Of a stretch of 64,000 nt of DNA, positions 2,037 to 16,485 are shown one piece after another. This DNA is from an uncultured delta proteobacterium (GTDB lineage Bacteria; Desulfobacterota; Desulfomonilia; UBA1062). The notes beneath the pieces were generated by a model, which saw only the letters and a program-made list of their open reading frames with translations, was not told the origin of the DNA and ran no database searches. Location: assembly GCA_963752595.1 (NCBI GenBank), contig CAVVYZ010000002.1, positions 64,001 to 128,000 of the forward strand. Direction: 5' to 3'. Position numbers and translations under genes: made by a program. Each line of letters starts with the position of its first letter. The first letter of the stretch is position 1.

Positions 2037-3370
2037 GTATGCTCGAGGCAGGACCGGCAGCCAGGATCGAGTCGCTCAAGGTGAAGAACGCCGCGAAGAA
2101 TCTCGATTTCTTCGGCAGGCTGCTCATCGATAACCGGGAGATGACCATATGGGAGCATGACACCAAGCTTCTTCCCTTCGGTGCCAGGGTATGGCGAAAG
2201 AGAGCCAGGGCCTTTGCCAGGGAGCACATCCGCCCCTGTGCCGCTGCGGCGGATATCTCACCGCATGAATACGATACCAGGCCTATGATCCTCAAGGCAG
2301 CAAAGCACGGGTTTCAGACCACCCTGCTTGCGATGCCGCTGGGCACGGCCTTCCCTGGGAGTTATTTTCTCAAGTCCGCATCATTGCAGCCGGCTGTCAT
2401 AGCAGAAGAGTTTGCGGCAGAATGCGGTGGTCTCGCACTCCTGCTCATGGCCCACCACCTCGGGTGCGCCCCGCTGCTCATGAGCGGTCACGTCCCGACC
2501 TTTTTCCGTCATCTCCTCCCGCTTTATGCAAAGACATTCCTGGGAAGGCCGGAGGTCATGGCCTTTGCCATTACCGAACCCGGCGCAGGCTCCGACGTGG
2601 AGGAAACCGAGGGAGGGGCTTCGGCCCAGCTGGTAACTACGGCGAAAAGAGTGCCCGGCGGCTACTCGATCAAAGGCCGGAAATGCTTTATCTCGGACGG
2701 TGCCATAGCAGACAAGGTCACTCTGTTTGCGAAGCTGGAAGGGGAGGGGATCGAATCCTGGACGTGCTTTCTCATCGAGAAAGACATGCCCGGGTATTCC
2801 ATCGGAAGGCGCGAGCACAAAATGGGGCAGCGGGCGGCGGATGCCGCTGAACTGATCCTGGAGGATGTGTTCGTGCCCGATAAGAACATCGTGGGAAGAC
2901 TCAGGAGCGGATGGGCAAACAACAGAAACGTCCTGAACTATTCCCGGCCCGTGGTGGGTGCCATGGCCCTGGGACATGCACGCGGGGCATTCGAGAGGGC
3001 GCTCGAGTTCTGCCGCAAAACCATGCTTGGGCCAAAAAGGCTTATCGATTACAAGGACATCCAGATCGAGCTGGCGGACATGATCGTCAAGCTCTGGTCA
3101 GCCCGAGCCCTGGTATGGCACAGCTGCAGCCAGTTCAGGTGCTATCAGTCGGCATCGGCTGCGGCCAAAGTGGCTGCATCGGATATCGCTTTCAGCGTGT
3201 GCACAAAGTCGCTCGAAATCATGGGCGACCATGGTTATGTCCACTCCAACGGTGCGGAAAGGCTCTGGAGAGACTCCCGTCTCACGCAGATCTATGAAGG
3301 CACGAACCAGATCAACCGCCTTGCGATCATAGAACACCAATGGGAGGCCGAGCTGACACGATCGATGTAA
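2033..3370 (+). CDS. Acyl-CoA dehydrogenase
   Basis: 'AFAITEPGAGSD', 'GRKCFISDG', 'KMGQRA', 'GDHGY...ERLWRDSRLTQIYEGTNQINR'; ATGA overlap with the upstream gene. Confidence 0.92.
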   Translation: MSMLEAGPAARIESLKVKNAAKNLDFFGRLLIDNREMTIWEHDTKLLPFGARVWRKRARAFAREHIRPCAAAADISPHEYDTRPMILKAAKHGFQTTLLAMPLGTAFPGSYFLKSASLQPAVIAEEFAAECGGLALLLMAHHLGCAPLLMSGHVPTFFRHLLPLYAKTFLGRPEVMAFAITEPGAGSDVEETEGGASAQLVTTAKRVPGGYSIKGRKCFISDGAIADKVTLFAKLEGEGIESWTCFLIEKDMPGYSIGRREHKMGQRAADAAELILEDVFVPDKNIVGRLRSGWANNRNVLNYSRPVVGAMALGHARGAFERALEFCRKTMLGPKRLIDYKDIQIELADMIVKLWSARALVWHSCSQFRCYQSASAAAKVAASDIAFSVCTKSLEIMGDHGYVHSNGAERLWRDSRLTQIYEGTNQINRLAIIEHQWEAELTRSM

Positions 3371-5002
3371 GACAGGATTGCTTTGGTAATGAATGGGTAG
3401 ATGACGGATAAAGTGTGATAATTAAGGTTTGAGCGTACAAGAATTGTGATGATGAAGCCACGATACTCTCCTGCAATTTGATGAATTTAATTAATCTTCT
3501 AAGATCTTTCATGTACTTATAGTACTCGAAAAGCTCACCCGGATCATATTTAAGCTTAGATATCCATGAGAGACTTGTTGATTATCTGTAAGGAATCATT
3601 ATAGAATATTAAATGTAACTCTTTATAGGAAGATATGAAGGAAGCTAATTGTTTGGTATGAGAATGTTTGCTCATTTTGGTTTTCTGAAACGTTTCATCT
3701 TGAAACGACAGGTTTTCTCTTCTCGATCCTGGTTATTTTTCTGCTACTGCCGGGATGCAGCGCCATGAGCAACGGAAGGCGCTGGGGCGAGGAACGTTAC
3801 ACTCTGGCCACTGGGAAAATATCGGTGAATCGAGCCTTCGATGCAGCAACTTCTCCCATGGTCTTCGTCCCTGCCACAGCCGCACTTCTCCTCCAGATCG
3901 GAGATGCCGACAAGAGGCTTTCGGACTGGGCGATTGATCACACACCCATCGCCGGTTCAAATGACCGGGCAGAAAGATTGAGCAAAGATCTCAGCGCCAT
4001 ATCATCCGTTGTATATCATCCGGTGTCTTTTACTTAAGCATATCTGGCTACTCCCAGCGGTCAGCGATCCGGTGTCCTAGGGAGCTTCCAAGGTTAAAGG
4101 GGACTGCTATACAGGGAAGCGCAGTCTTTCCTGAACCATGAAGCTCGTCTATGTACTTAAAGATGATCCGTTGGGAGAGAGCGTCCTGATAGAGCAACTC
4201 AGTGAGAATTTCCCCTCCAGCATGGCATCCGACTCTGCTGCATACACATCCCTTGCCGTAAAAAACATCAAAACCATGAATATACATGGTCCGGCCGAGA
4301 CATCTCTAGGCTAGGCTTTGTGCTGCATGCCCTGAACATTCGCCGTTGCCTGGGAGAGGGTCGTAGGCAAGGGCCCAGCTATCCTTCGGATGCGCTTGCT
4401 AAGGCATCTCTCTCGGCTACTTCACGAGTTCATTCTTCAACGATTCCTTCATGGGTACTTGATCCAAAGCAGAAAGGCATGCCTGTCGCTGGATTCAACG
4501 GAAAAGAAGTATTCATGGGTTATCGTTGGAGATTCTAAAATGCGATGAATGTCGAGCATACCTGCAAATAGAATCCTGCAGTTTTTCCCGGGATTGTTTA
4601 CCCTGAAAAAAATTATCTTTATGTTTTTCTGATTAAACACCTCACCATATTATTTAAACCGTCAGATATTATCAAGCTGACTGAAGACATAGGCCCTTTC
4701 TTCGTAGCTGATCTCTTCACCTCAGGAGGGCTTATAGTATTAATACCCGAAAGGGAGACATACCATTATGTAAGAAGGGCAATGTTTAGCATTGGTAATG
4801 CCGCTCTTTGTCCCATTTGTAAGGGCATGCTCTCAAGTGATCAGTCCTCCATCTATGCTGTTCAACTATTTGAAAATCCAACACAATCGAACTGTTAACA
4901 TAGCTGAGGCCGGATTTATATGTAGTGATCTTAAAGTAATGTGACACTAATGAGATTAACTTGTGAATCATTTCTGTTATTCATTCCATAGGAGGTTAAA
5001 TC

Positions 5003-5780
5003 ATGAAAAGAGTATAATCCTCGCTCTGGCAATACAGTATAATGAGCACAGTCGTTTATGCTGCCACGGAGCCGGAGATCATATGGGCAGGAGGGGAGTT
5101 GGAGGCTCGCGAATCAATCAGGCCCCAGGATATATTGCTGAAACCTTTGTCTATTTAGGTCAGTTAGACTCAATGTATATATTACAGCGACCCCATGGTT
5201 ATCGTAAAGGAGACCCGATTTGCGGACCGACCTTGGTGTGGGTGTACGGCTGCCGATTCCAGGTAGTCAGGTCATTGCAGGGTATAATCTATTTTTGGAC
5301 ATGACCACGGACAATGTCCAAAAACGTATGGGCACGGGAGCGGAAATCTTCCATCCGAAATTCTCTGCACATCAACATCTATCTACCTACCTGTACTCAG
5401 CATCATCGAGAAGAAGCAATCCCCGGGATCGACCTCACGCTGGGAATCCCCATTCCCGATGCCGGCTTTATTACTGTGTGGCCCGGAATATATTACTATG
5501 GTGGGGAAATTCAGACTGATGTGGGAGGCGTAAGCCTTGCGGTGAAGTAAAGCCCGTAAAAGCTGTCTCCATAATAGTGGGCGGTCGGAGCGATGCCCTT
5601 GAGGTGGGCAGGAACGACCCCGAAATATTTACCGAGCTGCAGGTTACTATCCCGATGAGACACCTGGGAAAGGATCTCTTCAAGTTCGATAAGGGCGAAT
5701 ATCCTATCAATATTAAAAACCAGCTCGATCACCGGATCATACGGGAGCCATTCATAACGGTTGAGCATAAGGAGCTATGA
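5003..5780 (+). pseudogene. Inverse-autotransporter (intimin/invasin-type) beta-barrel domain protein, multiply frameshifted, no passenger domain
   Basis: AGGAGG RBS then ATG 5003 with a signal-peptide-like start. Fragments 'DLGVGVRLP..VIAGYNLFLD...KRMGTGAEIF', 'HINIYLPT', 'GIDLTLG' and terminal 'QLDHRIIREPFITVEHKEL' resemble IAT_beta segments. Confidence 0.55.
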
Positions 5781-5793
5781 TAAAGGATCTTTC

Positions 5794-5823
5794 TTGACTT
5801 CGTGAGGCATTCTCTTCTATACA
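5794..5823 (+). promoter_or_regulatory. Sigma70-like promoter upstream of the tRNA fragment
   Basis: TTGACT-N18-TATACA, ending 12 nt before the tRNA-like 5' end. Confidence 0.45.
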
Positions 5824-5835
5824 GTACGTCGGAAT

Positions 5836-5869
5836 CGGGAAGTGGCTCAGTCTGATAGATCACAGCGTT
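5836..5869 (+). pseudogene. Degenerate 5' half of tRNA-Pro (truncated at the anticodon loop)
   Basis: CGGGAAGTGGCTCAGTCTGATAGATCACAGCGTT resembles the bacterial tRNA-Pro 5' pattern CGGGAAGTGGCTCAG..TGGTAGAGCACTGCGTT; no T-arm or acceptor 3' strand follows. Confidence 0.6.
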
Positions 5870-6085
5870 ATCTGAAAACTGATGATTTTCAGGTGACATC
5901 TATACAAAACGCCCTATACATTCGAGACTATAAAGTATGGCACGATATTTCTACCTTTTGTGAATATTCAGAAGGGTCTATTTTCTGACCTTGTCAGTTC
6001 GTTATCTTTATTGGTACGGTCAAGTTATAGCGAATACAGATAAGGATAGGCATTCCGCCTGTGTTTCTTGCTTCTGGCGGATTAC

Positions 6086-6193
6086 CTACTTGCTGGGGTA
6101 GGGGTGGGAAGCCTTCCGGGAGAAGCGCGCTACGAAACGCAGGCCAATACCCGCAAAGGCCAAAGAGCCGATGGTTATGAAAAGCAGTGTCAT
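6086..6193 (-). CDS. 35-aa single-TM microprotein (cassette copy 1)
   Basis: MTLLFITIGSLAFAGIGLRFVARFSRKASHPYPSK. TAATG overlap with the upstream gene; a paralog of identical length lies at 13562-13669. Confidence 0.75.
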   Translation of the reverse strand: MTLLFITIGSLAFAGIGLRFVARFSRKASHPYPSK

Positions 6194-6429
6194 TAGCGCG
6201 CCCTCCTCTCGATGATGACCTCCTGGATAAAACCCTTGAAGCCGAGCACGATGCCGATGATGAGCAGGAGCAACGTGAAGTTGGGGGCCATGCCGGTTAC
6301 CTTGTCGAGCCAGAGTCCTGCATAGAGGCCCAGGTAGGTCATGACCACGAGCACGATGCTGTAGCCGCTGATCCTGGTGAGCCTGTTTGCCAGTGCCCTG
6401 GGGATTCTTTCTTTTCTTGCCTTTTTCAT
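6193..6429 (-). CDS. AtpZ/AtpI-like (ATPase gene 1 family) two-TM small membrane protein
   Basis: 78 aa with 'GLYAGLWLDKVTGMAPNFTLLLLIIGIVLGF', the G..LD......P...L..G..G pattern of that family; AGGAGG RBS. Confidence 0.75.
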   Translation of the reverse strand: MKKARKERIPRALANRLTRISGYSIVLVVMTYLGLYAGLWLDKVTGMAPNFTLLLLIIGIVLGFKGFIQEVIIERRAR

Positions 6430-6460
6430 GGCACACCTCCTTGAGCTGGTTTGCCGTGTC

Positions 6461-6637
6461 CTAGAAAAGCCTCATGATCAGTTCTCTTGCCGGTGCGGTA
6501 TTGATTCCCACCAGGGCTACCATGAGAATGAATACTGCGGTAGCTTCGGCAGCGGTGATTCCCAGCACCTTATAAGTGAACCTGATCCCGATCCCGGTCA
6601 TGAACAAGCATCCGATTACGATCCAAAGGGTCAGCAT
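6461..6637 (-). CDS. 58-aa two-TM microprotein (cassette copy 1)
   Basis: Below the ORF-track cutoff: MLTLWIVIGCLFMTGIGIRFTYKVLGITAAEATAVFILMVALVGINTAPARELIMRLF. AGGAGG RBS; paralog at 13683-13859 with mostly synonymous or conservative changes. Confidence 0.85.
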   Translation of the reverse strand: MLTLWIVIGCLFMTGIGIRFTYKVLGITAAEATAVFILMVALVGINTAPARELIMRLF

Positions 6638-6681
6638 TGTCTTGTCCTCCTTTGTTTTTTATTGATTCCTGACAAGGATAT

Positions 6682-6697
6682 ATCAAGGGCCGTGCCA
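6682..6697 (-). promoter_or_regulatory. Sigma54 (-24/-12) promoter, cassette copy 1
   Basis: TGGCACGGCCCTTGAT on the minus strand (GG-N10-GA variant). An IHF-like TATCAGTTAGTTG lies at 6713-6725. Confidence 0.7.
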
Positions 6698-6761
6698 ACC
6701 GTTAAATGTTAACAACTAACTGATATTTAAAGACAATATAAATCAACTTGAAACCGGAGAT

Positions 6762-6857
6762 TGACAGTTTGGCACCAGGGGCTCATTTCAGCACCTCTGC
6801 TTTGACAAACTGGCAAAATGATCTTGAATCCGATTTCTTCCCAATGACAGTTTGGCA
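6762..6857. promoter_or_regulatory. Three phased TGACA-N3-TGGCA boxes (putative enhancer-binding-protein UAS)
   Basis: TGACAGTTTGGCA 6762, TGACAAACTGGCA 6803, TGACAGTTTGGCA 6845; spacing 41 and 42 bp. Confidence 0.7.
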
Positions 6858-6868
6858 TATACCTTGCC

Positions 6869-8264
6869 CTATCGGGCATTGGTCAGCCTGATATGAACTC
6901 CCATGTCCTCGTAGGCAACCAGCCGCGATTGAAAGCTGCTCTTGAGAATGCCGTTCTCATCCACGTAATCGTAGATTATTGCCTCGTGCTTGCCTTCGGA
7001 TACCCGCAGGATGCGGCCTATGTACTGCTTCACCCTCCCGGTGAACTTGATGGGCGTTGCAAGGAAGATGGAGGTGAGCTCCTTGAGGTCGAACCCCTCG
7101 CCGATGAGCTGGGCCGTGGCAACGAGGATATGGTCACGGGTATTGTTCAGCTTTTCGATGAGCTCGGCTCGCTGGTTCGTGGGCATTGAGCCGGTGAGGA
7201 GCGATACGGATGAGCCCTTGGAGGCGATCATCCGGTAGAGCTCCTCGCAGTGCGCCACACGGTCCGAGATCACCAGCGCGATGCCGTTCTCGCCCGAGTT
7301 GGTGCGCTCGACCACGTCGCTTGCGATGAGTGCGTTTCTCTTCTTGTCCGCTATCAGGGCCGAGATCATGGACTGGTATTCATCGGAATCGAAGTAGTAT
7401 GCACATTTCGTATTCCTAACCTTGAGCGTCGCTCTCATGATCTTCTCGATATCCTGGAGCTGGCGCGGCTGTATCCGGTGGAGACGGTCGCCGAGGTGAA
7501 AGTAGATGATCCTGGTGAGCTTGTCGCGGCGGTACGGCGTTGCGGACAGGCCGAGCATGAACGCGGTGTCGAGCTTGCCGGCAACCTCGGTAAAGGAGCG
7601 GGCAGGGACATGATGACATTCATCCACGATCAGGTGGCCGATTAACGGTTTGACCTCGTCAATGACTTTGAAGAGCGAATTGATGATCGCAATGGTAAGC
7701 TTTCTGCCTGTCTGCTTTTTTCCGTCTCCGACCAGCCCCACCTCATCTTCGGTGATATCCAGGAATTCGACCGCGCGCTTGAGCCACTGGTACATGAGCT
7801 CCTTGGTGTGGACGACCACGAGGGCAGGCTGAGCCCTGCGGGCAATGATATTCAGGGCAATCACCGTCTTCCCGGCTCCCGGAGGCGCTTCGAGCACGCC
7901 GAACCTTCGGGCGGTGAGGTCTCTGACTGCCTGGACCTGGTAGGGATGAAGCGTTGCCCGGAAGTCGAAAGTCACCGGATCGAGCATCCGGGTGCGGTCT
8001 ACGAGCATGTAGGGGGAGGGAGCCATTCTGCTCAGCAGGTGGTTGATATACCCGCGGGGAAGGATAAGGACGCCGTTTTCCCTCTCGTAGTAATCGAGCA
8101 TCTCGGGCTGGAAGTTGCGCCTTCTGCTCCTTTTGTATTTCTCCACCTGCTCCCACTTCGGGTTCGGGCAGGGTGAGATCTGCTTCAATGCGTTTGATGA
8201 CTTCCGGTGCAAGATCCGCCTCGAGCACCCTGACGGCGTTGTCTATGTGGATAACTGCTTCCAT
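6869..8264 (-). CDS. SF2 DEAD/DEAH-box helicase (ResIII/RAD25-like); one frameshift near 8170
   Basis: 'APPGAGKT', 'DECHH', 'LSATP', 'GEGFD', 'QYIGRILR'. N-terminus MEAVIHIDNAVRV...EADLTL from 8264 joins 'PNPKW' after a 1-nt shift. Confidence 0.85.
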
Positions 8265-8292
8265 TGCTGTGTTGCCTTTACAAATAAGACGA

Positions 8293-8865
8293 TCAGATGA
8301 CGCTTTTAAGGTCGTCGATGAGTCCGGCTGCCTCGTCTTTGCTCAATTCGATCCGCACCTTGCCGCCCCCGGGATGTGCAAAGGCGAGACGGATCTCCGA
8401 GCCGTCCTTCTCAACCGTCCATCTCCTGCCTTTGGGCATTTTCACCTTTGGCGAGAGCCAGTCGTCCGCCTCGAATTCAGCGATCTGGATGAGCACGCCG
8501 AAGGCATCTCTCGGATGGATGAAAAGCTCTTTCCAGATGGGGCCGTAGTCATTGAACCCGAAATAGGGGACATTGTTCTTTTCCAGGGTCTTTTTCGCCT
8601 CGTAGATATCGGGGGTCTGCATGGTGATGTGGTGGACGCCTCCCTGCTTGCTGCTCAGAAAGCCGTCGAGGAAGCTTCCGTCCCCGGTGGGGGTAAGGAG
8701 CTCGAACCTGCTCAAGTCGCCCAGCGCCATATTTTGCCAGAGATATTTCATGCTGCCGTCATCTGCATACGTGCCGGGCACGGCGCCGAGAAGCGTGGTG
8801 AAGAAGCTCAATGCCTTGTCATAGTCTCTTACTGCAAGAGCGACATGGTCGATTCGTGAGATCAT
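8293..8865 (-). CDS. VOC-family protein (methylmalonyl-CoA epimerase-like) with C-terminal extension
   Basis: 'RIDHVALAVRD', 'ELLTP', 'GGVHHI', 'FIHPRDAFGVLIQIAE'. Confidence 0.85.
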   Translation of the reverse strand: MISRIDHVALAVRDYDKALSFFTTLLGAVPGTYADDGSMKYLWQNMALGDLSRFELLTPTGDGSFLDGFLSSKQGGVHHITMQTPDIYEAKKTLEKNNVPYFGFNDYGPIWKELFIHPRDAFGVLIQIAEFEADDWLSPKVKMPKGRRWTVEKDGSEIRLAFAHPGGGKVRIELSKDEAAGLIDDLKSVI

Positions 8866-8979
8866 AAAGAACCACCTCTGATACAGTATGGCATATGTTC
8901 GTATAAGAAAGCTCCGTGGTTCGTCAATCGTTTTATCCGTGAGTCGGGGAAGCCTGCTCCGCCGGGGAAAGGACGTGTA

Positions 8980-10323
8980 TTATACATGCCCCTGCGGAGA
9001 AGGAAGCTGAAGCTCTGCACAGGGTTTCCCCTTATCAGCCGCGCCCCGGCAAGCTACCATGCCATTGATACCTTTGTCCTTGTGGGTGAAATCGATTGCC
9101 ATGATGTCCCGTGTCCTCCTCACGACTCGGCCCCGGGCCATGACATACCCTTCCTTGCCGTCTCCCGAGAGGTTGATGCTGAGATACCTGCCTTTCGGAC
9201 AGGGGTGTGCAGTGGAGAGCAGCAGCCCGTTTTCGCTGATATCGATCAGGCGCCCCGTCGTCTCCGATGCATCTCCCTGGGCTTTATATACCACATCGAT
9301 GAGAAGCGGATACCTCCGGGACTTTCGTCTCTCCTGGATGCTCCAGGCCATCCGGATAGAATCGATCTCTTCTTTTATGGCATCGCCGATCGGTGTATAT
9401 GCCATCCCCAGCTCCTTCTGCGACCTGCTGCCGTCTGCCATGAGGCTGTTCTGCAAGGTCATAAGATATTCGGGAGACATTCCCTGGAATGGAGGCCTGT
9501 TCAGGACCCTCGCCACTAGGGCGGAAGCGCCGGCCACGAACATGGCCAGAGAGTCGGGCAGGATTACCCTGGCAGTTTTGGATCCTATGACCTCTGATAC
9601 GGCTGCCAACAGGCGGCGTGTGGATATGCGTTCATGGGCAATGAAGTAACGTTTGCCCACAGCGCCGTCGAGGGTTAGGACCCTTGAAATAGCCTCTGCC
9701 ACATCCTGGACATGGATATAGGTATGGGCCGAATTCATCGATGACCTGGAAAAGAGCGAGTAGCTCATGATCCTTCTGACGGGGGATATGCGGTTTCTGT
9801 TTCTCCCCGGCCCGAGGACCACGGCCGGATAGCATACCGTCAGCGGAAGGCCCTTCTTGTAATGAAGGACCCATGCGATCCGCTCAGCCTCATATTTGCT
9901 CCGGGCCAGTTCGCTGAACCGCTGCGGCCCGATCGTGCTCTCCTCGTTGAACTTGGCCTGTGCCGGTTTGCCGTAGACATACAGCGGGCTCACATGGATC
10001 ACCCGGGAAATACCCGTCTCCAGAGCGCACTCCATGACGTTTCGTGTGCCGTTCACATTGACCTCGGCATAAATCTTTTTATGGGACTCCCAGAAGGATG
10101 ATGTTCCTGCCAGGTGGATAAGGGCTTCACATCCCGACATCCCGGGGAGAATGGTTTTTCTGTCTCTCACATCTCCCCAGACAAGATCGACGTCGAGTTT
10201 TTCCAACTCCTGAATATGGCTTGTCTTCCTGACGAGGCACACCAGTTGGTGGCCTTGCTTGACCAGGAGCCTCGCGGCATGGGTGCCTATGAAGCCCGTA
10301 GCGCCTGTGATAAAGATTTTCAT
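8980..10323 (-). CDS. NAD-dependent epimerase/dehydratase (HpnA-like extended SDR) fused to a C-terminal PilZ domain
   Basis: 'ITGATGFIG', 'NVNGTRNV'; C-terminal 'ERRKSRR...DISENG' match the PilZ RxxxR and DxSxxG motifs. Confidence 0.85.
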   Translation of the reverse strand: MKIFITGATGFIGTHAARLLVKQGHQLVCLVRKTSHIQELEKLDVDLVWGDVRDRKTILPGMSGCEALIHLAGTSSFWESHKKIYAEVNVNGTRNVMECALETGISRVIHVSPLYVYGKPAQAKFNEESTIGPQRFSELARSKYEAERIAWVLHYKKGLPLTVCYPAVVLGPGRNRNRISPVRRIMSYSLFSRSSMNSAHTYIHVQDVAEAISRVLTLDGAVGKRYFIAHERISTRRLLAAVSEVIGSKTARVILPDSLAMFVAGASALVARVLNRPPFQGMSPEYLMTLQNSLMADGSRSQKELGMAYTPIGDAIKEEIDSIRMAWSIQERRKSRRYPLLIDVVYKAQGDASETTGRLIDISENGLLLSTAHPCPKGRYLSINLSGDGKEGYVMARGRVVRRTRDIMAIDFTHKDKGINGMVACRGAADKGKPCAELQLPSPQGHV

Positions 10324-10528
10324 CCGATCCCTCCAAACAATGAAATTAAAACAATTCAGCGAGAGATCTTCCCCTGCGGAAGCCCCTCTGCACAGGGTGA
10401 CTGCCGGGAAAGAACTGTCTTAATAATATCATACTATGAAGAAAAATCAAGGGCTTGAATATTATTTCAGCCAGATGGAGGGATTTTCAAGGACAGATCA
10501 AAGAGAGGTTTCTGCCGGTGCGAATTGA

Positions 10529-10811
10529 TCACACCTCAACCGACATCCCGTCTCATACGCACATTCGAACTCGATGGATCCGCACCGCTGAAGCATGGAA
10601 TCTCCCAGATGGGTGAGAATTAATTTTTTGCAATCGGGTTCACGGCGGTGTTCCATGAGGGTGAGGTAGTTGAGGTGATTGCCGGCATATCTCTCGTATT
10701 CGAAGGTCTCGCAGATGAAGAGGTCGCAAGGATGCTGCTCCGGAGCCTGCCGCCGCTTCCGAATGCATCCCCGGAACCGAGAAACAGGACCTTGACAGAA
10801 CCCGCATCCAT
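10529..10811 (-). pseudogene. MBL-fold metallohydrolase remnant with large internal deletion
   Basis: N-terminus 'VLFLGSGDAFGSGGR' joins out of frame to C-terminal 'DLFICETF...HLNY...KLILTHLG'; the HxHxDH core is absent. Confidence 0.7.
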
Positions 10812-10815
10812 GGCT

Positions 10816-13227
10816 CTAGAAAACCTTCTTGAGCGCGTCCTTCAGCTCTTCGGCGGTATAGGGCTTGGCGACGGCACCACTGAAGCCGAATTCCCGGTAG
10901 TTCTCCAGGAGGTTCTCTTCTGCGTAGCCGCTCGACACAATGCCGATCACTCCCGGATCTATCTCCTTGAGCTTCTTCATGGTCTCGGCACCGCCCATGC
11001 CGTTATCGACCGTAAGGTCGAGAATCACTACGTCGAAGGAGCGGCCGGAGCGTTTTGCCTCGATAAACTTCTCGATGGCCTCCTCGCCGTTTTTCGATGA
11101 CTCCACCTGGTACCCCAGGTGCTCAAGGATCTCGGAAGCAGCGTCCCTGATCATCTCTTCGTCGTCCATGGTGAGGATGGACTCCCGGGAGGCGCTTGCA
11201 TGAGGTTGAGCAGCCTCTTCCATCCCCGTTTCCTTAATGCTTGCCGGCAGGTAGATGCTGAATACGCTCCCTGAACCGACATTTGACTCCACAACGATAT
11301 AGCCGCCATGCTTCTTTATGATGGAATAGGCGGTCGTCAGCCCGAGCCCCATTCCTTTCTGTGTGCCTTTGCCCTTGGTCGAAAAGTAAGGATCGAAGAT
11401 CTTATCCTTGATTTCTTCAGGGATTCCTGTCCCCTGATCACGGATGTCGATGACCACATACGGGCCTTGTTTTACGAATTTCGGATGTTCGGTGTTGTCC
11501 TGGCCGATGGTGGTATTTTTTGCGGCTATGGTGATCCGTCCGTCCCCATGCATGGCTTCCCTGGCATTCATGATGATGTTATGGAAGGCATGCATGATCT
11601 GATTCTGGTCGAATTCGACCATCCAGAGGCCGTCCGGAATATCGTACATGCAGGTGATATGCGTTCCCGAGAGTGCGAGATTTACCGCATCCGAAACGAG
11701 CGGCACCAGGGGGGCATTTTTCTTGTTCGAGAGCCCGCCCTTAGCGAGGGTCAGGAACTGCCTGATGAGATCACGGGAACGGGTACATGCCTCGATGGCC
11801 TTTACCAGCCTTTTATTTGCAGGATGATCCTGGGTAATGTGGAACTGCGCAAGCTCGATGTTGCCCAGAATCGTTGCGAGGAGATTATTGAAATCATGGG
11901 CGATGCCGCCGGCAAGCGTGCTGATGGATTCGAGCTTGCTCACCTTGATGTTCTCCTCTTCCTTTATCTTGCGATCCGTAATGTCGCGGGAAACGGCAGC
12001 CACACCCGAGACGGAGCCGTCCGGCTCAAAGAACGGATAATAGCTCAGGAGGCTGTACCGGCTCCCCCATCCCGGATAGTCGAACCATTCTTCATGATGG
12101 ATCTCTTTCCCTTCAAGGGCATTGTCCAGGTGTTTCTTCATCTTTCCGTCGAATACGTCCGGGCCGACGATTTCCGCGACGCTTCGCCCGATGAAATCCT
12201 TGCGCGTTTTGTTGAATGCGGAGAGATAGGCGTCATTGACTGCCTGGAATATATAATTTCCGTCGATGAAGGACATGGGGTTGTGGACCGTGGCGATGAT
12301 GAGTTCATACTTGTGCAGCAGTTCCTCTGCCTTGGTCCTGTTGATAACATCGCCGATCCTTCCTGCGACCGTCTCCAGGGCAATCCTCGAAGTAACGGGA
12401 ATCTTGTCGAAGTCGCGGGAGATCAGGCTTAAAGAAGCTATTACGGAGCCTTCGGATTTTATGGGGATGATCGCAACCCCCCGGATATCATCCGGCGGGA
12501 GTGAAACCCGGAACCTCTTCGAGGCTTCCTGATTGCTCCAGTACAGGGGACGACCCTCTCTGATGAGGAGTACCTGAGGGGACCAGGCATCAAGGTGGGT
12601 CAGGGGTTTCACGAGATTGTCGGGCATGCCCTTCTGTACGACAAGGTCCATTCCCCCTGTGCGTTCCTGGAGTATATAGACACCCCCTGCATCGACTCCC
12701 TCCACCGCCAGGACCGCATCCAGGATGCGGGAAAGCAGCTCGCGAAGCTCCAGGGAAGAGCTCAGGACAAGGCCCAGATCGCGCTGGAAGCGAAGCAGGT
12801 CTTCTATCTGTTTGTGAGGGGTAATGTCCCGGGCAAGGATGGCTATCTCTTCGGGCCTTCTGCCTTCCTGGGAGACCGGATAGAGCATGATGTCATACCA
12901 TATCTGATCCTGTTTATATTCGAACTGCAGGGACTCACCGGAAGAGAACACCTTTTCGGCCTGTTCTTTCCTGAATTGCGATGAATCCGGAGGAAAGTAG
13001 TTCCAGAGACAGGTTCCGATGAATTCCTCATGGTGTATGCCGAGATAGCTTGAGACAACCTCGTTTGCATCCTGAACCGTTCCCTGTTCGTCGATGAGGA
13101 TGAAGAAATCTGTCTGAGCATCGAGGATTGCCCGGATGACGCCGAGATTATGCCGCATCTTGCTGTTTTCCGTTTGCAGTTCCCTGAGATGGTTCTCGGA
13201 ATCTCCCCGGGCTGCTTTTTCAAACAT
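10816..13227 (-). CDS. Cytoplasmic hybrid sensor histidine kinase (PAS-GAF-PAS-HisKA-HATPase-REC)
   Basis: 'AGGIAHDFNNLL', 'NIIMNAREA', 'DQGTGI', 'FDPYFSTK', 'GLGL', REC 'MDDE...ILDLT...KPY'. ATG 13227 follows AGGAG. Confidence 0.92.
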   Translation of the reverse strand: MFEKAARGDSENHLRELQTENSKMRHNLGVIRAILDAQTDFFILIDEQGTVQDANEVVSSYLGIHHEEFIGTCLWNYFPPDSSQFRKEQAEKVFSSGESLQFEYKQDQIWYDIMLYPVSQEGRRPEEIAILARDITPHKQIEDLLRFQRDLGLVLSSSLELRELLSRILDAVLAVEGVDAGGVYILQERTGGMDLVVQKGMPDNLVKPLTHLDAWSPQVLLIREGRPLYWSNQEASKRFRVSLPPDDIRGVAIIPIKSEGSVIASLSLISRDFDKIPVTSRIALETVAGRIGDVINRTKAEELLHKYELIIATVHNPMSFIDGNYIFQAVNDAYLSAFNKTRKDFIGRSVAEIVGPDVFDGKMKKHLDNALEGKEIHHEEWFDYPGWGSRYSLLSYYPFFEPDGSVSGVAAVSRDITDRKIKEEENIKVSKLESISTLAGGIAHDFNNLLATILGNIELAQFHITQDHPANKRLVKAIEACTRSRDLIRQFLTLAKGGLSNKKNAPLVPLVSDAVNLALSGTHITCMYDIPDGLWMVEFDQNQIMHAFHNIIMNAREAMHGDGRITIAAKNTTIGQDNTEHPKFVKQGPYVVIDIRDQGTGIPEEIKDKIFDPYFSTKGKGTQKGMGLGLTTAYSIIKKHGGYIVVESNVGSGSVFSIYLPASIKETGMEEAAQPHASASRESILTMDDEEMIRDAASEILEHLGYQVESSKNGEEAIEKFIEAKRSGRSFDVVILDLTVDNGMGGAETMKKLKEIDPGVIGIVSSGYAEENLLENYREFGFSGAVAKPYTAEELKDALKKVF

Positions 13228-13341
13228 GAACCGCTCTCCTTTTATGATCCTCACACACAGTTATGACGTATGTATGAGAGATTATCTCTGATGTGTCAAT
13301 ATCACATATCATAGAGCCTGTTCATGCTGTTTCAAACAGAT

Positions 13342-13367
13342 TATTCCCGGCAGCCCGGCTTTAGGGG
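13342..13367 (+). repeat. Imperfect direct repeat, left copy (flanks cassette copy 2)
   Basis: TATTCCCGGCAGCCCGGCTTTAGGGG; 23/26 identical to 14130-14155. Confidence 0.65.
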
Positions 13368-13561
13368 TCGCCCTTTTTCCCTCTCGCGACTCGCTTGCGG
13401 GTGCCCCGGGGGGAGAATACAGGAGAGGGGGTAAATGCTGATGCCGGCTTCAGGCAGAGGACGCCGATAGAAGAGAGGTCCAAGGAATAAAAATATGGAA
13501 AAGCGGCCCCGGAAGATGCCATATCCCCAAGGACCGCGAATGGTTGTTTTGCCGGGAAGGA

Positions 13562-13669
13562 CTATTTTACCCTGTCGGCGACAGGTTCTTTGAAAAGCAC
13601 TCTGGCGGCAAACCTGTATCCGATTCCGATGAAAGATACGATGCCGATGATGGTGAATATGAGTGTCAT
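13562..13669 (-). CDS. 35-aa single-TM microprotein (cassette copy 2)
   Basis: MTLIFTIIGIVSFIGIGYRFAARVLFKEPVADRVK; AGGAG/AAGGA RBS; paralog of 6086-6193. Confidence 0.75.
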   Translation of the reverse strand: MTLIFTIIGIVSFIGIGYRFAARVLFKEPVADRVK

Positions 13670-13682
13670 GGTCCTTTTCTCC

Positions 13683-13859
13683 TTAAAACATCTGGGCAAT
13701 CATTTGTCTTGCCGGCCCGGAATTGATGCCTATCAGCATAACGATAAGTATGAATACGGCGGTTGCCTCGGCAGGGGTGAGCCCCAGAACTTTGTACGTA
13801 AACCTGATCCCGATCCCTGTCATGAACAAGCATCCGATAATAATCCAAAGGGTAACCAT
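13683..13859 (-). CDS. 58-aa two-TM microprotein (cassette copy 2)
   Basis: MVTLWIIIGCLFMTGIGIRFTYKVLGLTPAEATAVFILIVMLIGINSGPARQMIAQMF; GAGGAG RBS; paralog of 6461-6637. Confidence 0.85.
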   Translation of the reverse strand: MVTLWIIIGCLFMTGIGIRFTYKVLGLTPAEATAVFILIVMLIGINSGPARQMIAQMF

Positions 13860-13898
13860 CTTCTATCTCCTCTCATGTGTTTATGCGTCCTCACATTG

Positions 13899-13914
13899 AG
13901 CAAGGAGAATGCCA
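13899..13914 (-). promoter_or_regulatory. Sigma54 (-24/-12) promoter, cassette copy 2
   Basis: TGGCATTCTCCTTGCT on the minus strand; canonical GG-N10-GC. Confidence 0.8.
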
Positions 13915-13977
13915 GGTGACCATCATTTGTAACTTAATGAAAATTAAAGATAAATAAACATTGCAGAAAATGATGAA

Positions 13978-14071
13978 TGACAAATTGACAATATGGGATC
14001 AAATTACTTCGAGGTTTTTGTCAAGTTGGCAAAAATACGGAGTGCAGCCTGAAATATGTGACAACTTGGCA
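13978..14071. promoter_or_regulatory. Three phased TGnCA-N3-TGnCA boxes (putative UAS)
   Basis: TGACAAATTGACA 13978, TGTCAAGTTGGCA 14019, TGACAACTTGGCA 14059; spacing 41 and 40 bp. Confidence 0.7.
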
Positions 14072-14129
14072 AATCTTATTTAAACAGGCAGTGAACCATG
14101 GCCATCCGGAAATCTGAATTCTATCAGGA

Positions 14130-14155
14130 TATTCCCGGCAGCTTGGCTTAAGGGG
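14130..14155 (+). repeat. Imperfect direct repeat, right copy
   Basis: TATTCCCGGCAGCTTGGCTTAAGGGG; matches 13342-13367. Confidence 0.65.
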
Positions 14156-14159
14156 CACT

Positions 14160-14876
14160 TCACTGGGTCAGCTCGAAGGTAACGCTCACAAAAGACTCGA
14201 AAGTAATCTGGCCGGGGACAATAGGTGTGCCTACGCCTTCGACCTGCATGGTTTGCTCGGTGCCCGGTTCAGCGTTATTAGGGACATACTGGATGTATTT
14301 GATTCTTCTCACGCCCAGTCCTGCCGCTTTTGCAAGCCTCTTTGCATAATCGACAGCATTCTCAAGGGCTTTTTCCGCTGCCTGTTTCCGGAGTTGGTCT
14401 TTGTCGGTCCGGTGAAAGGTGAGTGAACCCACACGGGTTGCTCCTGCACCGACAGCAGTATCGATGGCGGATCCCAGACGTTCTATCCTCGATGTTTGTA
14501 TAAAGATAGAATTGTTCACCCGGTAGCTCCTGGGAACAATCCGGTTTGATTTCTCGAAGAGCTCCTTGTCTCTTTCATACAGAGGTTGAATGGTATAGTT
14601 CGAAGTGGATACCGTGATATCCTTGTTCAGGAGTCTTCTCAATGCGGTTATCACCTTGCCGGAGAGCTCTGCATTCTTCCTGATGGCCGACTCAGCCCTG
14701 GCTTCGGAGTTCTCTACGGAAAAAATTATGGTTGCCAGGTTCGGGGGTGCGGTGATCACGGCCTGCCCGGTTACGTCAATGATAGGTGCAAAGCCCCTAT
14801 CCTGTGCGCCCGAGAAAGCAGGTATCGACACTATGAAAAGTATCATGCCGGCGCATAGTGCAAACCCTCTTCCCAT
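14160..14876 (-). CDS. SIMPL/DUF541 periplasmic protein
   Basis: Signal peptide, 'IDVTGQAVITAPP', 'YRVNNSI', 'AEKALENA...AKRLA', 'PGQITFESFVSVTFEL'. Confidence 0.85.
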   Translation of the reverse strand: MGRGFALCAGMILFIVSIPAFSGAQDRGFAPIIDVTGQAVITAPPNLATIIFSVENSEARAESAIRKNAELSGKVITALRRLLNKDITVSTSNYTIQPLYERDKELFEKSNRIVPRSYRVNNSIFIQTSRIERLGSAIDTAVGAGATRVGSLTFHRTDKDQLRKQAAEKALENAVDYAKRLAKAAGLGVRRIKYIQYVPNNAEPGTEQTMQVEGVGTPIVPGQITFESFVSVTFELTQ

Positions 14877-15333
14877 ACATCCCTCCGCCGCTGGAGAACT
14901 TGAACTCCCTCCATGGGAAAGCCCTTTTACGGCAAAAAAGCTTGTTTCCCATACCTTATCATTGTCCTGCTATCATATTATAAGAGGAATAAAATCGTTT
15001 TCATCCGGCAGATTGCCTTCCTGTGTGACGGGTGACGTTCAGCGTATTTTACCACGGTAAAAGTATTACTCTCCTTTGGATATAGCCGATATTCTTCTTC
15101 CTTGATTCCCGGATAAATCTCTGAAGTATCATCTTGCCTATCCCTTTGCGAATATGCTCCGGAAGGATGAAATGGAAAGGAAGGGAGCCCGGTACGGATT
15201 ATGGTCAAAGCACCATACTATGGTCGGATATTCTATGGCGGGCTTGGGGGAAATACCTTGAAAACAAAGGAACCTCATTTTGCCCATTGAGTGATTCCAA
15301 TAACTTGCATTAGACGGTGAATTTTACAGATTC

Positions 15334-15349
15334 TGGCATGCATTTCGCT
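15334..15349 (+). promoter_or_regulatory. Sigma54 promoter for the CoA-transferase operon
   Basis: TGGCATGCATTTCGCT (GG-N10-GC), 45 nt upstream of ATG 15394. Confidence 0.65.
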
Positions 15350-15393
15350 TTATGTGGTTGATCAAGTAAAAAAGCAAGATGTGGAGGATATGT

Positions 15394-16485
15394 ATGGCAG
15401 TTTTCGATTACAACAAGGAAGCTCTTGCGAACCTCAAGATAGAGGATACGAGCATCCTGGACAGACTCGTCGACTTCGAGGCGGCAAGAAAGGTTCATCT
15501 GAACAAGGAAAGGGCAAAGAAGGACAAACGTATGTCTCTCAAAGAGGCTGTCGCTGAGTTCGTGAGTGACGGCGATGTTGTCCTGGACACCGGGTTCGGA
15601 TATGTGCGGACATGTATCCAGAGCCATTTCGAGATTTGCCGCCAGGAGAAGAAGAATCTGCAGATGATAGGCGCCCCGAACACGAATCAGAGCTATATGA
15701 GCTTTGCCGGCTGTGTATACTACTCCCACAGTTCCTACACAGGCGCAGAGATGCGGGGCACTGACAAGAATTACAAGAGGATGATGCTGAGCGGGAAGCT
15801 CAAAGTCGTGTCCGAATGGAGTCACGGAGGCGTGGGCCAGGGGCTCAAGGCTGCACAGCTCGGGTGTCCCGGCGTTTTGAGCAAACAAATGCTGGCTTCA
15901 GATATTGTCAGGTACAACCCGTACCTCAACGTGATCCAGAATCCCATGAGGCAGGATCCGGACCCGGTTGTCTTCATCCCTGCCCTCTACCCGGATATCG
16001 TCTTCATCCATGCACAGGTTGCGGATAAGTACGGCAATGCATGGCTCTACGGTCCTACGGTGAACGATGTGGCCGGTGCTGCGGCTGCCAAGAAGGTGGT
16101 CATCACTGCAGAGGAGATCGTTCCCGAAATGGATATCCGAAACAACCGGAAAGGCACCATCATCCCGTTTTTCTATGCCAATGCAGTAGTGGAGTTGCCC
16201 TATGGGGCACTTCCTGGAAGTATGCCCGGTTACTATTACTGGCCGCGCCAGTGGTGGGAAAAGCTTATGCGTTTTGGCGGAGCGAGTGACGAGAACATGA
16301 AGAAGTTTGTCGACGAGTGGATTTTCGGCACCAAGGACCAGATGGAGTTCGTGGAAAAACTCGGCGGCGCCAAGTGGATGATCGAGGCGAGACGACAGAC
16401 AAAGGCTGCCGAGGGAGACAACGAGGATATCGATTTTGCATACCAGGAATACCGGACGGATAACGACCCTGGTATCTACTATTGA
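15394..16485 (+). CDS. Family I CoA-transferase subunit A (glutaconate CoA-transferase GctA-like)
   Basis: 'KRMSLKEAVAEFVSDGD', 'PALYPDIVFIHAQVADKYGNA', 'VVITAEEIV', 'PYGALP'; GGAGG RBS. Confidence 0.88.
   Translation: MAVFDYNKEALANLKIEDTSILDRLVDFEAARKVHLNKERAKKDKRMSLKEAVAEFVSDGDVVLDTGFGYVRTCIQSHFEICRQEKKNLQMIGAPNTNQSYMSFAGCVYYSHSSYTGAEMRGTDKNYKRMMLSGKLKVVSEWSHGGVGQGLKAAQLGCPGVLSKQMLASDIVRYNPYLNVIQNPMRQDPDPVVFIPALYPDIVFIHAQVADKYGNAWLYGPTVNDVAGAAAAKKVVITAEEIVPEMDIRNNRKGTIIPFFYANAVVELPYGALPGSMPGYYYWPRQWWEKLMRFGGASDENMKKFVDEWIFGTKDQMEFVEKLGGAKWMIEARRQTKAAEGDNEDIDFAYQEYRTDNDPGIYY

Follow-up and report, generated by a model that had tools for sequence, protein, structure and literature searches.

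A conserved sigma54-driven cassette of small membrane proteins in uncultured Desulfomonilia and its possible link to the ATP-synthase c-ring

What is the job of a cassette of tiny membrane-protein genes that stands behind a sigma54 promoter with a three-box enhancer? Two such cassettes lie on contig CAVVYZ010000002.1 of an uncultured delta proteobacterium (4.1-Mb genome; Desulfomonilia, UBA1062), and we analysed the 64,000 nucleotides (nt) that hold them, positions 64,001-128,000, referred to here as the window. An earlier note, made from these letters alone, had placed two cassettes on the minus strand, and all of their elements were located there. Each copy encodes a 58-amino-acid (aa) protein, A, and a 35-aa protein, B; copy 1 also encodes a 78-aa protein, Z. 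The cassette is real, conserved and apparently undescribed in print. Its arrangement fits no known kind of system, and its parts probably derive from known ATP-synthase families. We tentatively favour a reading in which it would supply an inducible kit that binds the c subunits or c-ring of ATP synthase and throttles Fo. The features of the two copies are listed below. Promoter, enhancer-box and integration host factor (IHF) calls are consensus matches, the last against WATCAANNNNTTR, which we take to be the IHF consensus.

6845..6857, minus strand: copy 1 enhancer box 1 (TGCCA-N3-TGTCA, a near-palindrome), 160 nt ahead of the -24 element
6803..6815, minus strand: copy 1 enhancer box 2, 42 nt downstream of box 1
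6762..6774, minus strand: copy 1 enhancer box 3 (proximal), 41 nt downstream of box 2
6713..6725, minus strand: copy 1 IHF-like site in the enhancer-promoter interval, a single mismatch from consensus
6682..6697, minus strand: copy 1 sigma54 -24/-12 element TGGCAC-N5-TTGAT, 22.1 bits
6461..6637, minus strand: A1, 58 aa, predicted to form a membrane hairpin of two helices and a short third helix at the C terminus; Glu31 and Pro49 invariant; likely a c-subunit offshoot
6193..6429, minus strand: Z1, 78-aa membrane protein of the AtpZ/AtpQ family (PF09527), profile match above the cut-off
6086..6193, minus strand: B1, 35 aa, single helix with a basic tail, paralogue of the first helix of A
14059..14071, minus strand: copy 2 enhancer box 1, box match
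14019..14031, minus strand: copy 2 enhancer box 2, box match
13978..13990, minus strand: copy 2 enhancer box 3 (proximal), box match
13930..13942, minus strand: copy 2 IHF-like site, consensus match
13899..13914, minus strand: copy 2 sigma54 -24/-12 element TGGCAT-N5-TTGCT, 18.4 bits
13683..13859, minus strand: A2, 58-aa paralogue of A1, 76% identical to it
13562..13669, minus strand: B2, 35-aa paralogue of B1; the AtpZ-like gene is missing from copy 2

These are real genes for small, predicted membrane proteins, as the earlier note had held. Every cassette gene is preceded by a GGAG-type ribosome-binding site, which bears out its remark on good sites. The ATG of B1 shares bases with the TAA of Z1 (TAATG), and the ribosome-binding site of B2 runs across the A2 stop. 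No minus-strand terminator-like site was called for copy 1 or copy 2. A1 and A2 are identical at 44 of 58 positions, with a ratio of nonsynonymous to synonymous substitution rates (dN/dS) of 0.16. B1 and B2 share 16 of 35 residues. Orthologues exist in another genome of the same genus, and against these dN/dS is 0.13 for A1, 0.21 for Z1, 0.135 for B1, 0.08 for A2 and 0.17 for B2, not near 1; across 1,989 pairs drawn from 76 A genes it has a median of 0.157 (Nei-Gojobori method, saturated pairs and pairs with dS below 0.1 excluded). The five small genes, at dN/dS 0.08-0.21, are under purifying selection and are therefore selected protein-coding genes. Length was said to be exactly conserved. 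This holds for A, which has 58 aa in both copies; it fails for B, for which 41 of 55 collected peptides have 34-35 aa, the range is 31-51 aa, and one 61-aa form exists in addition. Public gene annotation does include A, as a hypothetical protein. A, B and X, a sister family of A described below, have no Pfam or NCBIfam family match, and a protein atlas search returned hypothetical clusters only. No published description of the cassette was found in the literature searched, a coverage mostly outside subscription journals, and the earlier impression of a system not described before stands.

The promoter region is conserved far beyond the window. Both copies have the -24/-12 promoter and three-box enhancer that had been proposed, and the pattern of proximal box, 58-67 nt and -24/-12 element matches 49 of the 52 genomes of the taxonomic family (113 sites), with 34 of 34 near-complete genomes represented; a reversed control pattern gave 0 matches in the same 52. 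Fifty of the 113 sites were read, of which 46 run directly into an A gene and 4 reach a contig edge within 67 nt. Since all 46 readable sites precede A, the enhancer belongs, on the sites read, to the A cassette alone. Genome-wide, the strict box occurs 26 times against 33 predicted by composition, and triple clusters of it occur twice, both inside the window. A weight matrix trained on 34 promoters of other genomes gave three sites of 46-56 bits; two are the copies in the window, and the other belongs to a further A cassette, on contig C1. The next of the 895 sigma54-like sites scores -3.7. A sigma54 element precedes at least 36 of the 38 A genes with enough upstream DNA (39 were collected), and of 50 family promoters 40 have a similar IHF-like site. 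The proximal box ends 64 nt (copy 1) and 63 nt (copy 2) before TGGC, which keeps the proximal position given earlier and corrects its figure of 64-65 bp. Box 1 is held at -156 to -162 in related loci. Between the boxes the DNA has diverged, with 12 of 28 positions identical in the inter-box spacer of equal length. For a related genus, the part of PMC4641369 available to us gives the consensus tGGcacg/tTGCt, and its motif yGTCA-N6-TGACr is different from the A boxes. A second sigma54-like element (18.9 bits) starts on the plus strand at 6853, overlaps box 1 and points antisense into a helicase gene; it was not seen by eye in the orthologue of the same-genus genome G004 and is probably due to chance.

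The earlier idea of induction by envelope or proton-motive-force stress found no support, and neither a signal nor an activator was identified. The activator hunt covered sigma54 activators of this genome and six others (loci for 60 of the 89 listed matches, with a quick tree); in that sample three or four activators are restricted to the taxonomic family of this genome: C14:21460, the C13:168863/171946 pair and C14:53383.

The cassettes form a dispersed family. The genome has four A genes, and A relatives occur in 21 of 24 family genomes and in 0 of 16 genomes of the other sampled family of the class. A protein search gave 388 relatives, labelled Desulfomonilia, Syntrophaceae UBA1062/UBA6087, Deltaproteobacteria, Thermodesulfobacteriota and two "Bacteriovoracaceae" bins. 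The only A-type cassette found outside the taxonomic family, G376:C59:323-496 in a genome of another family, is near a contig end and may reflect transfer or mis-binning. Copies stand in unrelated neighbourhoods, with up to seven near-identical copies in one genome (G450), and orthologous positions are kept between species. Both window copies belong to this dispersed family and the same position pair is kept in a same-genus genome, which does not fit the local duplication at first supposed. An AtpZ-like gene follows A in at least 29 of 39 A loci and B is present in at least 23 of 39, both pattern-based lower bounds, as some loci end early. The usual unit is thus A-Z-B, and Z1, previously read as an extra gene of copy 1, is its normal middle gene. 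Copy 2, whose close relatives in G009 and G001 still have Z, has probably lost its AtpZ-like gene, rather than copy 1 gaining one.

Several observations concern the surroundings of the A genes. A hybrid kinase at 10816-13254 (PAS-GAF-PAS histidine kinase) lies downstream of copy 2, has a sigma70-like site of its own at 13335 and is not conserved as a cassette neighbour. Downstream of copy 1, window positions 3400-6050 are AT-rich with short broken frames and include a fragment of an inverse-autotransporter beta domain (5220-5519); G004 carries a different gene at this place. The fourth A gene of this genome (G000), at G000:C22:157023-157199, is intact and has neither boxes nor a -24/-12 element, both of which its G004:C2 orthologue keeps; it lies behind a sequence that by eye resembles the transfer RNA (tRNA) for phenylalanine. 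No atp structural gene adjoins the A cassettes, and the atp operons are elsewhere in the genome.

What do the three proteins resemble? Z1 was introduced as AtpZ/AtpI-like. The first half of that label is sound, with a PF09527 match of 44.4 bits (cut-off 26.6, E 1.7e-11), and the second is not, as there was no match to PF03899 (AtpI/UncI) at E<=1. B aligns with the first 26 residues of A (hhalign probability 88.7; 0 of 100 shuffles as high) and is on this ground a half-hairpin paralogue of A. It has no similarity to the c subunit or to X (61 of 100 shuffles scored as high for c, 57 of 100 for X), and the alignment of A with AtpZ-like proteins has an hhalign probability of 0.7. The AlphaFold2 model of A has helices at residues 2-21, 29-45 and 48-57 and a break at residues 22-28 (predicted local distance difference test score 86), and this predicted two-helix hairpin is what would be expected of a c subunit. 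Fold searches gave little information. With A and X alike, Foldseek found nothing at E<=0.001. In a wide structural search the best Z-score was 6.5, among unrelated helical pairs, and a c-ring entry stood unremarkably at rank 27 (Z-score 5.7).

A is probably homologous to the c subunit, as judged from profiles, and the homology is weak. We compared a joint profile of A and X with 177,635 sequences of the Protein Data Bank (PDB): 15 of 17 matches are c subunits, ranked first with a best E of 0.0058, and the alignment pairs F20-T-Y-x-x-L-G-x-x-x-x-E31-A of A with the c outer helix, including the ion-binding Glu. The c subunit still comes first with the A-only profile, at E 0.2. Aligned with 21 local c subunits by hhalign, A scores 20.07, a value reached by 0 of 150 column shuffles (mean 10.7, standard deviation 2.3; reversed control 11.3). 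When the A profile was run against 91,582 six-frame genome segments, the only matches at E<5 outside A, B and X were two atpE frames. Glu31 and Pro49, eighteen residues on, are invariant in 46 of 46 A sequences, and a Pro at the same +18 position is present in all 17 c subunits that are long enough.

A second line of evidence comes from sister families. X, 91 aa long, begins with a signal-peptide-like leader, and its hairpin is homologous to A (hhalign probability 74, E 2.8e-5). Its gene also has a sigma54 element, combined here with another enhancer type, TTGAA-N7-TTCAA, and in many cases a PF09527 gene of its own comes next. Mature X aligns with mature c at an hhalign score of 17.2 (1 of 150 shuffles as high), and the X leader resembles the c-subunit leader of the same genomes (18.39; 2 of 150 shuffles). 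A third hairpin subfamily, Y, has 64-69 aa and no leader. With the joint profile the superfamily occurs in 17 of 401 genomes of the phylum at E<1e-6, in five families; two further genomes at E 0.003-0.01 are probably chance matches. X-type or related members are labelled Desulfomonilia, Syntrophaceae or Syntrophales. A search of 1.84 billion representatives gave 45 matches, and the 27 that were read are, apart from one repeat protein, all members or fusions. A and X cassettes adjoin in eight loci, each with its own enhancer type, seven convergent and one tandem (L034, L143, L147, L156, L157, L160, L164 and L167).

The predicted X regulon includes genes for the c subunit itself. Of five atpE genes in the genome, three are orphans and the others belong to atpZIBE and to an N-ATPase operon; two of the orphans carry a sigma54 element. 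When 512 sigma54-like sites were scored with a matrix built from 19 X promoters found in other genomes, these two orphan atpE promoters and four X/Z promoters came out highest, at 29.9-30.9 bits, the next being 12.7. At G000:C17:305876-313100, a sigma54-type atpE with a leader and a gene for a 433-aa Cache protein lie opposite genes for a Cache/PAS kinase and a sigma54 activator, behind which stand X and an AtpZ-like gene. The Cache protein has two membrane helices and a sensor domain and no output domain. A second such atpE-Cache pair lies on C5 opposite an X cassette. Among ten regions selected by hairpin, atpE or activator matches, the pair stands opposite a kinase and a sigma54 activator in nine, and Y lies directly behind it in five, with an AtpZ-like gene next in three. 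Among the 401 genomes, Cache orthologues and the hairpin superfamily have 16 of 17 genomes each in common (one Cache orthologue is split across contig ends).

Further variants of these genes were seen. Another orphan atpE-Cache pair, G000:C1:369519-371386, occurs within the phylum sample in 7 of 7 genomes of the taxonomic family and in no others. Its promoter is sigma70-like; by eye, a conserved inverted repeat, ATTCAGA-N7-TCTGAAT, accompanies it, and pairs of this type are followed by rnf-like genes in 5 of 7 regions. No sigma54 site or box was found for this operon, which therefore lies outside the A regulon. Relatives also have open frames with six matches to the c-subunit hairpin (487-492 aa), a putative fused rotor subunit, beside an 82-83-aa c subunit, at G005:C95:113264-114961, G006:C34:125446-127133, G007:C70:51476-53165 and G013:C297:5558-7237. 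Decayed sister copies comprise an X remnant, which retains an intact promoter and AtpZ-like gene, and frameshifted versions of an AtpZ-like and a Cache gene (G000:C9:333530-334000; C17:337800-338400; C5:120880-122182). The C5 and C17 copies of X are nearly identical, in which contamination of the assembly (6.8%) may play a part.

These observations suggest how the cassette could act on ATP synthase. The three boxes, spaced by about four helical turns, would take up an enhancer-binding protein that, aided by bending through IHF, opens all A promoters together. A would insert with both ends outside and the R19/K23 loop inside, as a c-like hairpin that keeps the outer part and the Glu-to-Pro helix and lacks the R(N/Q)P loop, the part of the c subunit that grips F1 and binds gamma/epsilon. 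With that loop gone and the Glu apparently near the cytoplasmic surface, A could serve as a non-driving spacer or wedge in the c-ring and not as a normal ion carrier. The many copies of A would supply the dose needed to titrate an abundant target, Z might assist assembly or delivery, and B might trim the effect. Fo throttled in this way could, for example, halt ATP hydrolysis or ion leak at low energy. The earlier suggestion of modulators of a membrane complex thus survives as the reading we favour; the evidence points to the c-ring of ATP synthase, and we infer that this is the complex concerned.

A number of results weigh against a c-ring target. By profile A is not a member of PF00137, which matches 0 of 46 A sequences. 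The X-only profile finds no c subunit in the PDB, and the hhalign probability of A with local c subunits is 9%, over a match of about 26-31 hydrophobic residues. The R(N/Q)P loop, present in local c subunits, was not found in any A sequence. The eight residues before the Glu carry 0 charges in c, 1.2 in A and 2.2 in X, and their mean hydropathy is 2.04, 0.85 and -0.93, respectively. These polar residues, with the helix break at 22-28 in the model, suggest a Glu that may have left the middle of the membrane. Helix caps can also have the pattern T-P-A-E, so that conservation of this interfacial-looking Glu need not reflect ion binding; one distant X-like member (P0280) is without it. The A enhancer precedes no atp gene, whether at the three of 895 sites here or at the 46 of 46 readable family sites, and none of the family-restricted activators adjoins an A cassette or carries a box. 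The tie of A to atpE is indirect and runs through the sister family; the genomes in which Cache and hairpin proteins co-occur are a few related lineages and not independent, and G020 (99% complete) has three A copies, no X and no close Cache orthologue. As for the helper, the accessible part of PMC4453477 credits AtpI, not AtpZ, with c-ring assembly, and AtpZ with Mg2+ uptake.

Other explanations draw on the same evidence. A, Z and B, with X/Y, the orphan c and the Cache proteins, might be membrane modulators that feed back on a sensor kinase, a c-like helix sensing or relaying the energy state of the membrane. The X cassette lies directly behind its likely kinase and activator, the Cache protein, having a sensor and no output domain, needs membrane partners, atpB is in none of the cassettes, and small regulon-encoded membrane peptides that act on kinases are common according to the available text of PMC12648545. 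We nevertheless consider this unlikely, as no kinase or activator is conserved beside the A cassettes, up to seven copies per genome (G450) would exceed the need of a scarce kinase, and the AtpZ-family partner is left unexplained. A second possibility is an inducible channel or uptake system for ions (Mg2+/Ca2+ or H+), built from oligomers of A and Z and working apart from ATP synthase; Glu31 would sit at its mouth and B, a single helix, would regulate it. The interfacial look of the Glu and the small residues G9, G15 and G17, suited to tight oligomer packing, agree with a channel, as does AtpZ of Bacillus pseudofirmus OF4, which improves Mg2+ acquisition and for which a calcium-uniporter link is suggested (PMC4453477, in the part available). 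This becomes rather doubtful in that A has a single conserved acid, no transport gene is conserved as a neighbour, and it leaves unexplained why X/Y share enhancer and neighbourhood with atpE.

The same proteins could alternatively act as parts of the rotor. The loop-less mini c subunits, with a protonatable Glu, would then join the ring beside normal or alternative c and change the number of ions per ATP. We think this improbable; if true, two sigma54 regulons (A-Z-B, and X-Z with an extra atpE) would set different rotor gears, a transcriptionally switched rotor stoichiometry in bacteria near the thermodynamic limit. An inducible depolarising or dormancy module, a small membrane toxin of the TisB or holin kind with Z or B as modulator, dispersed over the genome as a selfish or stress unit, is very unlikely. 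It would suit the dispersed copies in unrelated contexts, the copy behind a tRNA-like sequence (by eye), the very tight promoter type and the occasional decayed copies; strong purifying selection, presence in all 34 near-complete family genomes and orthologous positions kept between species tell against it, no toxin family was matched, and a search of 3300-15500 for known RNA families, antitoxin RNAs among them, gave no Rfam match. Least credible of all is that A is a minimal type IV or Flp-like prepilin, cleaved after Gly26 with Glu31 as Glu+5 and a PilR-like activator. G26-I-T-A-A-E31 does fit the prepilin pattern, and length, multiple copies and sigma54 control recall Flp/pilA genes. The would-be leader is a hydrophobic helix that exists separately as B, though, and Gly26 is not invariant in A and is absent in most X; no pilin Pfam family matches the 46 A members, no tad/pil genes are conserved neighbours, and the ordinary pilA-like gene of the genome has no boxes and no sigma54 site by the pattern used. 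We rejected the pilin reading as largely refuted by the hydrophobic leader, the variable Gly26 and the lack of a pilin profile match or assembly genes.

It has long been asked how syntrophic anaerobes manage to make ATP on very small energy margins, and the size of the c-ring sets the ion cost of ATP. If the throttle reading were true, a regulon of c-like mini-hairpins and AtpZ-family proteins would represent an undescribed control of Fo from within the membrane, and would give a testable job to stand-alone AtpZ-family genes, the function of which is poorly known. Even if the target is not ATP synthase, A, B, X and Y make up an unnamed protein superfamily, and the A promoters, found in 34 of the 34 near-complete family genomes searched, are among the cleanest sigma54 enhancer architectures. 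With three tiny genes the idea is directly testable by co-expression with a c subunit, although the hosts are metagenome-assembled.

Among known systems, the closest likeness is to the c subunit (AtpE, PF00137). Like it, A is predicted to be a hairpin of two helices whose ends both lie outside; helix 1 holds G-I-G, and a Glu with an aromatic residue at +5 and a Pro at +18 is followed by a short helix. Its sister X has a similar leader, and the sister family is co-regulated and co-located with atpE. Unlike the c subunit, A is about 18-20 residues shorter in mid-sequence, lacks the R(N/Q)P loop and the Na+ ligand set, is polar before the Glu, falls below Pfam detection and is encoded in dispersed sigma54 cassettes without atpB. 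The c1 and c2 subunits of Acetobacterium woodii form a heteromeric ring, and the c1 chain 4bem_J was a weak match in the joint-profile PDB search. Z1 belongs with AtpZ of B. pseudofirmus OF4 and AtpQ ("gene 1" of N-ATPase operons) in PF09527. It differs from these in not heading an atp operon, and the genome has its own atpZ and atpQ elsewhere; in a quick tree with long, weakly resolved branches, cassette-borne Z proteins stand apart from two F-type AtpZ rows. AtpQ is distinct from AtpI and not confined to N-ATPase operons in the available part of PMC2881411, split atp loci are described in that of PMC4154653, and the accessible portion of bioRxiv 10.64898/2026.10.01.756066 does not mention AtpZ or AtpQ. 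Small regulators covered in the available text of PMC12648545 offer two further comparisons. Cyanobacterial AtpTheta is likewise a small conditional protein, proposed to restrain ATP synthase; it is a single amphipathic protein with no likeness to c, whereas the present system is a three-gene membrane cassette under sigma54. MgrB, SafA and UgtL-UgtS, which act on PhoQ, are likewise small membrane proteins of a two-component regulon and include a 34-aa peptide with a larger operon partner, whereas the A cassettes do not lie beside a kinase, occur in multiple copies, carry an AtpZ-family gene and match none of these families.

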